Origin: Myxococcota bacterium
GTDB taxonomy: Bacteria; Myxococcota_A; SURF-8
Length of the DNA: 64,000 nucleotides
Assembly: GCA_963674735.2 (NCBI GenBank)
Contig: CAXXQS010000002.1
Location: 480,001-544,000, forward strand
Direction of reading: 5' to 3'
Each line of letters begins with the position of its first letter. The first letter of the stretch is position 1. The position numbers and the translations under genes are program-made. Below are positions 21,431 to 22,756 of the stretch, piece after piece. Below the pieces are notes generated by a model. The model was not told the origin of the DNA. It was given only the letters and a program-made list of their open reading frames with translations, and did no database searches.

Positions 21431-21454
21431 GATGGGCAACAAGTTGCCCATCCT
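21431..21454 (-). repeat. GTAG-type REP hairpin interrupted by the IS110 element (insertion target)
   Basis: GATGGGCAAC-AA-GTTGCCCATC is a perfect inverted repeat. Rejoined with the right flank it gives ...CCCATC-CT-AC, i.e. GTAG-GATGGGCAAC on the minus strand. Confidence 0.8.
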
Positions 21455-21468
21455 TGTATTATCCCTTT

Positions 21469-21675
21469 CAAGCGACTGTCATCGTTTGTGATGATAAGAT
21501 GAAACGACCTCCCGTAGCAAGCGGGAGGCCGTGGTGGGCGGCGAGATCGTCCCATCCTGGGGCCTGATGAGCCCGTTTTGTAGCCGGATCCGCCGTCCGT
21601 TTCGTCCGGGAAAACCCGAACAGTCGCAGGGGCCATTGTAATCGAAATGAGCCCGTATTGGCAAGGAAGGGTGCG
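21469..21675 (+). ncRNA. Bridge RNA (target-binding loop ~21536-21598, donor-binding loop ~21614-21672)
   Basis: Guides TCCCATCCT (21550-58) and GTAG (21580-83) match the target. ACAGTCGC (21620-27) and CAAG (21662-65) match the end junction. Each pair flanks an inner GGGC/GCCC hairpin. RNA ends are estimated. Confidence 0.85.
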
Positions 21676-21677
21676 CC

Positions 21678-22613
21678 ATGAAGAAATGGATCGGGATCGA
21701 CGTCAGCAAAGCCGTTTTCGATGTCGCCGTCGACGGCGAAAGCACGTGCGTCCGCTACGCTTACACCAAAGCCGGCATGACACGCTTCGTCCGTTCGTTG
21801 AAGCGGATCGAGGTGGAGGGCGTCGTGATGGAAGCCACCGGCGGCTACGAACGGGAGCTGTGCAAACGTCTTCAGAAAGCGGGTTGGCCGGTGGCGGTGG
21901 TCAATCCCCGGCGCATCCGGGATTATGCCCGCGCCGTCGGCGTGATGGCGAAAACGGATCGACTCGATGCGGGCATCATCGCACGCTACGCAGCCGCCAT
22001 GCGTCCCGCACCGAACGAAACGCTCGGCGAAACCGCCCTCCTGTTAAAAGCCCTGTCTTCACGGAGGCGGCAGCTGGTCGCCATGCGCACGATGGAGAAA
22101 AACCGCACCGAACACGTGGGCGATCGGACGATCGGACAAAGCCTGCACCGCATTCTGGAGGTGATCGAACGGGAAATCGAGCGGCTGGATCGGGCCATCG
22201 CGGCGGCCATTGCATCGGATCGGGAGCGCAGCGACCGGGCCGCGCGGCTCCAAACGATGCCGGGCGTCGGCGCGTGCACGGCGAATCTTCTGGTGACGGA
22301 TCTGCCGGAGCTGGGGATCTACAACCGGCGGCAGATCGCGGCGTTGATCGGCGTGGCGCCCATGAATCGGGACAGCGGAACGTTTCGGGGTAAACGCATG
22401 ACCGGCGGCGGTCGTCATCGCCTGCGCACGGCGCTCTACATGCCGACGCTGGTGGCGATTCAACACAACCCGGTGATTCGCGGACACTACCAGCGGCTGG
22501 TCGGACGCGGCAAACCGAAGATGACGGCGGTGGTGGCCTGCATGCGAAAATTGGTCCTCATTCTCAACACGATGATGCGGAAAAACGAAGCCTGGAACCC
22601 GAATTTCGCTTGA
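21678..22613 (+). CDS. IS110-family transposase / bridge recombinase
   Basis: RuvC-like DEDD residues in GIDVSK, MEATGGYE and KTDRLDA; Tnp20 domain with PGVG, APMNRDSG (catalytic Ser), GRHRLRTALYM and ACMRKL. Confidence 0.97.
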   Translation: MKKWIGIDVSKAVFDVAVDGESTCVRYAYTKAGMTRFVRSLKRIEVEGVVMEATGGYERELCKRLQKAGWPVAVVNPRRIRDYARAVGVMAKTDRLDAGIIARYAAAMRPAPNETLGETALLLKALSSRRRQLVAMRTMEKNRTEHVGDRTIGQSLHRILEVIEREIERLDRAIAAAIASDRERSDRAARLQTMPGVGACTANLLVTDLPELGIYNRRQIAALIGVAPMNRDSGTFRGKRMTGGGRHRLRTALYMPTLVAIQHNPVIRGHYQRLVGRGKPKMTAVVACMRKLVLILNTMMRKNEAWNPNFA

Positions 22614-22658
22614 CACCGATAACAGTCGCTACTTTTCTACCTTCTAGGGGTTTTGAAT

Positions 22659-22756
22659 GGGTGGCATAGTTTCACAAACGACGTTCGAGAGGCTGTGTCT
22701 TCTTTATTTCGCACAGCTTCCCACGATCCGTCGGATCGCGTGAAACTATGGCACCC
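22659..22756. repeat. Composite palindromic element (17 bp outer inverted repeat enclosing two hairpins)
   Basis: GGGTGGCATAGTTTCAC ... GTGAAACTATGGCACCC (16/17); inner GCTGTG/CACAGC and CGATCC/GGATCG. Confidence 0.7.

Follow-up and report, generated by a model that had tools for sequence, protein, structure and literature searches.

An inverted copy of the circle junction in the left end of an IS110-family element from a Myxococcota bacterium and its possible part in a junction hairpin

Introduction

The stretch of DNA analysed here (the window: 64,000 nucleotides of contig CAXXQS010000002.1, positions 480,001 to 544,000 of the forward strand, from a Myxococcota bacterium; coordinates below count from its first letter) contains an IS110-family element, termed WIN as the window's own element, in which a 16-nt sequence near the left end (LE) repeats, in inverted orientation, the junction that is formed when the right end (RE) and the LE are joined in the element when it is circular. 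Why should such an element carry a second, inverted copy of its own donor site? The question has a wider bearing, since work is under way to turn bridge recombinases into programmable genome editors and their natural cycle is under revision, with single-stranded circles, half-match recombination and target stem-loops entering the picture. We favour, tentatively and with somewhat less than even confidence, the reading that the copy is part of an ancient, decaying, IS1111-like sub-terminal inverted repeat, by which the junction would become a hairpin-capable palindrome with an accessory, DNA-level action on the circular intermediate.

The inverted copy and the boundaries of the element

The inverted copy, CAAGCGACTGTCATCG (21469-21484, forward strand), comprises five nucleotides of the RE and then donor positions 1–11, and its reverse complement agrees with the RE-LE junction 16-mer in 15 of 16 positions, with one mismatch. 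A sequence-only reading of the same DNA had already pointed to this match and to the presence of the full 11-nt donor within it, and both observations hold: the site contains donor positions 1–11, WIN scoring 11/11 against its own donor, and the similarity is above chance (0/100 shuffles). Within the window, six matches to the junction 16-mer with at most three mismatches were found, against 0.35 expected, a number that none of the 100 shuffles reached, and 21469-21484 is the sole match with one mismatch; the match to the junction is not a chance event. The integrated RE itself scores two mismatches, because the integrated copy ends in CTAC and not in CTTG. A repeat search returned the inverted pair formed by 21471-84 and 22617-30, 14 nt long and 93% complementary.

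The circle junction is known in this case, and not assumed, because the core, the start of the LE and the end of the RE are fixed by eight full-length copies of the element in the genome, all 100% identical, together with their flanks. Comparison of these flanks places the element at 21455-22628, bracketed by the CT core at 21453-21454 and 22629-22630. All eight copies show the left flank GATGGGCAACAAGTTGCCCATC-CT, followed by TGTATTAT at the start of the LE, and the right end CGATAACAGTCG-CT-AC, beyond which the flanks diverge. A contig loose end at 21454, running on as an empty site, agrees with these boundaries; the contigs of the three DNA runs contain no circle junction. The LE is 223 nt long and the RE reaches 15 nt beyond the stop codon of the recombinase gene (21678-22613, forward strand, 311 amino acids), whose product matches DEDD_Tnp_IS110 (PF01548, 3e-22) and Transposase_20 (PF02371, 8.3e-19).

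Pairing across the junction

In the circle, the RE terminus plus the core (CGATAACAGTCG CT, 22617-22630) constitutes the left arm of a palindrome and the inverted copy its right arm, the two arms being 12 nt apart. The left arm contains the whole left donor, the CT core and two nucleotides of the right donor. Between the arms are found the first 14 nt of the LE (21455-21468), which carry the right donor TGTAT and a putative -10 hexamer, TATTAT (21457-21462), and would form the loop of a junction hairpin, the -10 box lying within the spacer. With DNA parameters, the predicted energy of this hairpin is -14.9 kcal/mol in WIN, and -11.8, -11.4 and -8.8 kcal/mol in the related elements L021, L022 and L013, respectively (L-numbers designate related elements and loci).

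The copy also has a possible partner in RNA, since GCGACTGT (21472-21479) is complementary, as claimed in the sequence-only reading, to the left donor guide (LDG) of the bridge RNA, ACAGTCGC (21620-21627), in the position of the donor-binding loop. Since the LDG repeats the sequence of the left donor, whatever is complementary to the RE end is complementary to the LDG as well. Nevertheless, the LE arm pairs more strongly with the RE arm than with the LDG in its context (-24.1 vs -16.2 in WIN, -21.8 vs -18.4 in L022 and -21.2 vs -19.0 in L021), and its CAAG end fits the CTTG of the junction, there being no CTTG counterpart beside the LDG. Both features favour a DNA relation between RE and LE, and among the four explanations that the sequence-only reading had put forward, an arm of a cruciform or hairpin at the junction is the one that fits best. 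Two instances of the heptamer TCGCTTG are found in the junction, one covering the -35 box and stop codon (22606-22612) and the other the donor and core (22626-22630 plus 21455-56), so that the LE arm can also pair in a second register (17 nt, 82%).

We propose that the inverted copy is the LE arm of a long sub-terminal inverted repeat whose other arm would be the RE terminus, that is, the donor itself, and that this repeat would be ancestral to the clade and decaying in most of its members. Upon circularisation, the arms would make a 16-nt (15/16) palindrome across the RE-LE junction, which could fold as a hairpin on a single-stranded circle or as a cruciform on a supercoiled double-stranded circle. 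In such a fold, the left donor and the core would be base-paired and the rest of the right donor would be exposed in the open loop. We infer that the fold may form in vivo and may aid or tune donor recognition and the use of the junction promoter, in an accessory and not an essential manner.

A more specific role is suggested by the strandedness of the circle, although we regard it as doubtful. IS110 excision is described as releasing a top-strand single-stranded circle (10.1101/2025.10.25.684509; 10.64898/2026.08.31.748434), a single-stranded top-strand donor is reported to give in vitro about 20-fold less LD-RT junction than the duplex (10.1101/2025.10.25.684509), and the LDG pairs with the bottom strand of the donor, as presented for IS621 (PMC11208158); a top-strand circle would therefore be without the strand that the LDG reads. 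The inverted copy could then serve as a cis-encoded 'bottom strand' of the left donor, enabling integration straight from the single-stranded circle: the hairpin would pair donor positions 1–11 with 21469-21479, giving exactly the strand read by the LDG, and donor positions 12–14 would remain in the loop, free for the right donor guide (RDG). If this were so, the junction hairpin would be the donor-side counterpart of the stem-loop gate on the target side of ISPpu10, discussed below.

A donor-side hairpin that includes a guide-read half-site would, if true, give the donor a structural layer of its own alongside the gate on the target side, would suggest a route to efficient single-stranded donor substrates and would connect the IS110 group, described with 3-bp repeats only, with the IS1111 group and its long sub-terminal repeats. 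Should the repeat prove to be a decaying relic, it would still mark the ancestral junction architecture of the clade.

Conservation of the arm among related elements

Related loci were taken from species-representative genomes, metagenomes and the genomes of relatives, and 75 distinct elements with both ends assigned were compared. The scans of contigs (80 loci), of 101 relatives' genomes and of 401 genomes of the phylum (5 with E<=1e-95) yielded just four other lineages at 54–62% identity, and the metagenome scan gave no relative above 55% identity. Proteins 64% and 59% identical were found on contigs that lie outside the element set, and 28 viral-contig loci, all at most 44% identical, were left out of it. 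The exact inverted 7-mer, present in 2 of 60 loci, was too strict a criterion and was replaced by mismatch and duplex scoring.

When the inverted 11-mer of each element was scored in its own LE (+5..+60), the best match was 11/11 in WIN, 10/11 in L021 and L022, 9/11 in L036, 8/11 in seven elements and 5–7/11 in the remaining 64, the maximum with the two controls being 8 (reached by four and three elements). L021 and L022 keep their 10/11 at 57–59% recombinase identity to WIN, and the substitutions in their arms, C to T in L021 and A to G in L022, keep G-T/G-U pairs.

Duplex energies point in the same direction. The junction arm was paired with LE +9..+55 and compared with dinucleotide shuffles, the 75 elements being collapsed to 68 representatives; z was below -2 in 12 of the 75 elements. 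Among representatives with at least 48% recombinase identity, the mean z was -1.58 (n=33), and -1.19 when WIN, L021 and L022 were taken out (n=30; t-test p=2.6e-6, a value inflated by relatedness), whereas the controls in the same 33 gave -0.08 (reversed arm) and -0.57 (deeper LE segment), and the 35 representatives below 48% gave +0.17. Elements with at least 48% identity have, thus, a weak but significant arm complementarity, which the more distant ones do not have. Pairing of both core bases across the junction, predicted with DNA parameters, was observed in 14 of 33 near and 5 of 35 distant representatives (Fisher p=0.015).

The recombinase tree, read as a topology without support values, shows WIN and L013 as sisters and a second group in which L022 branches beside L021 plus L023; L121 falls in the same clade. 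The WIN-type arm is thus present on both sides of the basal split of this six-lineage clade and, on the simplest account, would be ancestral there, with loss or rebuilding in L013, L023 and L121. L013 has a junction hairpin in a different register, in which the core is also included.

Several observations weigh against the favoured reading. At least 10/11 positions are kept in just 3 of the 75 distinct elements, and 7/11 is the most that is reached by any of the 23 elements whose left donor is different, and therefore the copy does not covary with the donor. Three members of the same six-lineage clade, L013, L023 and L121, have lost the WIN-type arm, although two of them are still multi-copy (L013 with eight copies and L023 with at least four), which makes the arm dispensable for activity. 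In the L052 group, the LE arm, with GACTGTTATC, fits the WIN-type RE (GATAACAG) and not its own, so that the arms did not co-evolve there and drifted without compensation. An arm-swap test, in which cognate and swapped arms of 14 elements were compared, gave modest cognate support, the cognate arm being first in 4/14 and among the top three in 8/14, with L022 in 5th and L136 in 12th place. Related sequences are, moreover, not independent, and the p-values given above overstate the signal; the copy lies outside the conserved bridge-RNA structure; and a loop of 12 nt disfavours cruciform extrusion in double-stranded DNA. A covariation of the outer arm between WIN and L022, first read as compensatory, brought no measurable extra stability in the arm-swap test and was rejected.

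The same data would also agree with a copy that is merely what is left of a sub-terminal inverted repeat of the IS1111 kind, ancestral, decaying and functionless in WIN today, an alternative that we consider rather unlikely. Most of the clade holds fragments only, with seven elements at 8/11 against three or four in the controls, and the loss of the arm in active multi-copy relatives, the uncompensated divergence in the L052 group and the lack of covariation with donor variants are what would be expected of a relic. However, WIN, L021 and L022 keep 10–11 of 11 positions while the surrounding leader is unalignable at 57–59% recombinase identity, the changes in L021 and L022 are compatible with wobble pairing, and L013 again has a junction hairpin, rebuilt in another register. 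The sequence-only reading, which took conservation and covariation with the donor and LDG as marks of a functional copy, is therefore borne out in part: the copy is conserved in L021 and L022, with enrichment at 48% identity or more, but three of the six nearest lineages, multi-copy ones included, have a degraded copy, and the covariation is absent.

Bridge RNA, promoters and the leader

The conserved bridge RNA is preceded by a leader of about 40 nt, and it is here that the inverted copy is found. This leader is unalignable among relatives and outside the consensus structure of the alignment, and it is missing in relatives whose LEs measure about 180 nt. The bridge RNA starts with a 5' stem-loop (21509-21529), followed by the left target guide (LTG, CCCATCCT, 21551-21558), identical to the left half of the target plus the core, the right target guide (RTG, GTAG, 21580-21583), which is the complement of CTAC, the LDG and the RDG (AT..CAAG, 21657-21665), the last assigned by analogy with the pairing scheme presented for IS621 (PMC11208158). 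Both donor guides are conserved in the alignment, which comprises 15 LEs and shows a conserved RNA structure with nine pairs in which both partners have changed. Of 60 homologous loci, 58 have a direct copy of the RE end 50–115 nt upstream of the start codon, and the LDG follows the RE variants among loci (ACAGCCG, ACAGTTG, ACAACTG, ACAGTAT, ACGGTAT and others). The Rfam search matched no bridge-RNA family; the Xanthomonadaceae sRNA sX15 gave a weak match on the minus strand (21532-21664), antisense to the bridge RNA, which, with 23.5 bits for a gathering score of 55 and E=0.26, is probably due to chance.

Consensus spacing suggests that a promoter is rebuilt at the RE-LE junction, composed of the -35 hexamer TTGACA (22610-22615), which overlaps the stop codon and is kept in most relatives, a 17-nt spacer and the -10 hexamer TATTAT in the LE. 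Its predicted start, at ~21469-71, coincides with the beginning of the inverted copy, and the overlap with a transcription start that the sequence-only reading had noticed stands as far as this consensus spacing goes. A candidate internal promoter of the extended -10 type, TG-A-TAAGAT (21492-21500, predicted start ~21507), was read from the sequence and is absent from the promoter scan. It precedes the 5' stem-loop by 7 nt, has -10-like counterparts at this position in relatives and may be an internal bridge-RNA promoter of the clade. Several relatives also have good -35 boxes there, as TTGGCA-17-TAGAAT in L032. In the integrated state, a TGGGCA from the REP-like target sequence comes to lie 18 nt upstream of the LE's -10 box (9/12; 21433-21462), which may result in a weak hybrid REP-LE promoter with the same start as the junction promoter, without circularisation.

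Two starts would make possible an RNA switch, in which the leader of transcripts from the junction promoter (start ~21470) masks the LDG and transcripts from ~21507, without leader, are active. In a variant, the leader would pair with the RE copy in the 3' untranslated region of the full-length mRNA, forming a panhandle. We consider the switch, the two versions taken together, unlikely. Folding of the 211-nt RNA from 21470 predicts a minimum free energy of -89.6 kcal/mol, with GCGACUGU paired with ACAGUCGC in the LDG (z -3.47, none of 200 shuffles being as stable), and the 174-nt RNA from 21507 has a predicted z of -1.30; in L021 and L022, 10 pairs are possible with the LDG of the same element, the substitutions being G-U compatible, and the -10-like boxes ahead of the 5' stem-loop in relatives would supply the leaderless transcripts. 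However, the helix between leader and LDG is part of the minimum free energy structure in WIN, and partly in L013, but not in L021 or L022, the second leader helix of WIN is absent from the predicted folds of the relatives on inspection, and the consensus structure of the alignment leaves the leader out. The RE arm is, as described above, a better partner than the LDG context, and masking of the LDG in the circle, when integration needs it, is hard to rationalise. An antisense mask of the LDG, as suggested in the sequence-only reading, is thus predicted for WIN, and for this element alone.

The location of the copy also invites a reading as an RNA-guided operator or second donor, in which the recombinase-bridge RNA complex would bind the inverted site in double-stranded DNA, through 8/8 positions of the LDG and the CTTG part of the RDG, and would repress the internal or hybrid promoter or use the site for half-match recombination. 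The site holds donor positions 1–11, half-site matches are reported to suffice for IS621 recombination (10.64898/2026.08.31.748434), and the copy overlaps promoter-like elements, namely the hybrid TGGGCA-18-TATTAT and a possible -35 position for TGaTAAGAT. We find this reading improbable, since all eight copies are collinear from the LE start, with no products of site use, no inversion or permuted joint occurs in the contigs of three DNA runs (contigs miss rare forms), the copy does not covary with donor variants and its position relative to the internal promoter-like boxes varies among relatives. We see no sign of the use of the site in recombination, and neither the operator nor a scar of inverted self-recombination, both raised in the sequence-only reading, gained direct support.

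Comparison with described elements

WIN resembles the IS110 group in its recombinase, with DEDD/RuvC-like and Tnp (Transposase_20) domains, in its long LE encoding a structured RNA with target- and donor-matching loops, combined with a short RE, and in its site-specific insertion at a CT core on both sides, in 8/8 copies in the same REP site. It departs from this group in the length of its repeat. IS110-group elements are described as having no inverted repeats other than a 3-bp ATA/TAT sub-terminal inverted repeat (STIR) around the donor (PMC11208160), of 2–3 bp as a group trait, whereas in WIN a repeat of 14–16 nt joins the RE terminus and LE +15..+30. The short repeat is also present in WIN, in the order GATA, ACAGTCGCTTG, TAT. 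It flanks the donor symmetrically; the arms of the long repeat have 16 nt, one being the donor and the other lying 12 nt further into the LE. The sequence-only reading had allowed for an ordinary sub-terminal inverted repeat, and this is the closest label, but the length is not ordinary for a group described with 3-bp repeats only (PMC11208160).

The resemblance to IS621, as this element is described (PMC11208160; PMC11208158), extends to the DEDD_Tnp_IS110 and Transposase_20 domains, the bridge RNA in the LE with its target and donor guides, the CT core, the REP target, a junction promoter (predicted in WIN) split between RE (-35) and LE (-10) and a nearly alike donor, which is ACAGTCG CT TGTAT in WIN. 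Compared with that description, WIN differs in the leader of about 40 nt between the junction start and the 5' stem-loop, with its 16-nt inverted junction copy. IS621-like elements in our set, with ACAGTAT and ACGGTAT donors, have no inverted copy, and a distant blastn search with the IS621-like locus L089 against E. coli genomes gave no match.

The repeats of the IS1111 group, described as near-perfect, 11–13 bp long and set in by 7 bp on the left and 3 bp on the right (PMC11187229), are similar to the WIN repeat in length, in the near-perfect match, in the position of the right arm (0–3 bp from the right end) and in the distance between the arms in the circle (~10–12 bp). From this geometry, the right arm of the IS1111 repeats must overlap the left donor. 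The extensions are different, with 14–17 bp on the left and 0–2 bp on the right in WIN, where the left arm starts 14–17 bp, and not 7 bp, from the end and the core is inside the arm and not in the spacer. Instead of a long RE carrying the guide RNA, WIN has a 15-nt RE, and its bridge RNA is encoded by the LE, which is the arrangement of the IS110 group.

In ISPpu10, an intra-strand stem-loop containing the left target is reported to enhance integration (10.64898/2026.03.19.712850). It shares with the WIN junction the intra-strand complement of a guide-read left half-site, and the REP target of WIN (21431-21452) is of exactly that form. The junction hairpin of WIN is, however, on the donor and not on the target, its complement is 3' of the site and its stem includes the core; the ISPpu10 stem-loop was tested and that of WIN is predicted. 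ISPpu9, another REP-targeting element of the IS110 group, has a small conserved palindrome (A-box) near the LE, whose role is described as unclear, its mutation not having stopped circle formation (PMC12288879); this A-box is a short, local GCCC-N4-GGGC palindrome resembling the target and, as described, holds no inverted copy of the RE or donor. The literature consulted, supplementary files not covered, contains no description of a donor-side stem-loop or of an inverted donor copy in an IS110-group LE.

The REP-like target and further observations

WIN is located at the 3' foot of a REP-like palindrome, GATGGGCAAC/GTTGCCCATC (21431-21452), an inverted repeat of 10 nt with 100% complementarity; the bridge RNA reads its 3' arm as the left target. 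In the genome, 14 exact target sites are unoccupied, besides 8 occupied ones. In its family form, the palindrome reads GTAGGATGGGCAAC-NN-GTTGCCCATCCTAC (21431-21456), and a second, inverted REP copy is often found 20–30 nt upstream of insertions. Some relatives (L027, L042-L044, L067, L130, L136, L137, L163, L075 and L083) insert at CT-GA and not at CT-AC, and therefore use different targets with the same donor.

Promoter-like sites were also observed on the minus strand. One is found inside the donor-binding loop (21664-21635, TTGCCA-18-TACAAT, 10/12), and its predicted transcript would begin roughly opposite the LDG; a weaker one (21520-21491, TTGCTA-18-TATCAT), with a predicted start at ~21484, would read through the inverted copy. 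A stretch of 25 nt formed by the bridge-RNA linker and the stem of the donor loop (21585-21609) is 80% complementary to 22011-22035, in the recombinase coding sequence, and the leader of L039 contains a tandem GAGTT run. Beyond the element, the right flank of the window copy (22650-22700) recurs with ~90% identity at two further sites of this contig (L009 and L010), and belongs to a short repeat family unrelated to the insertion sequence.
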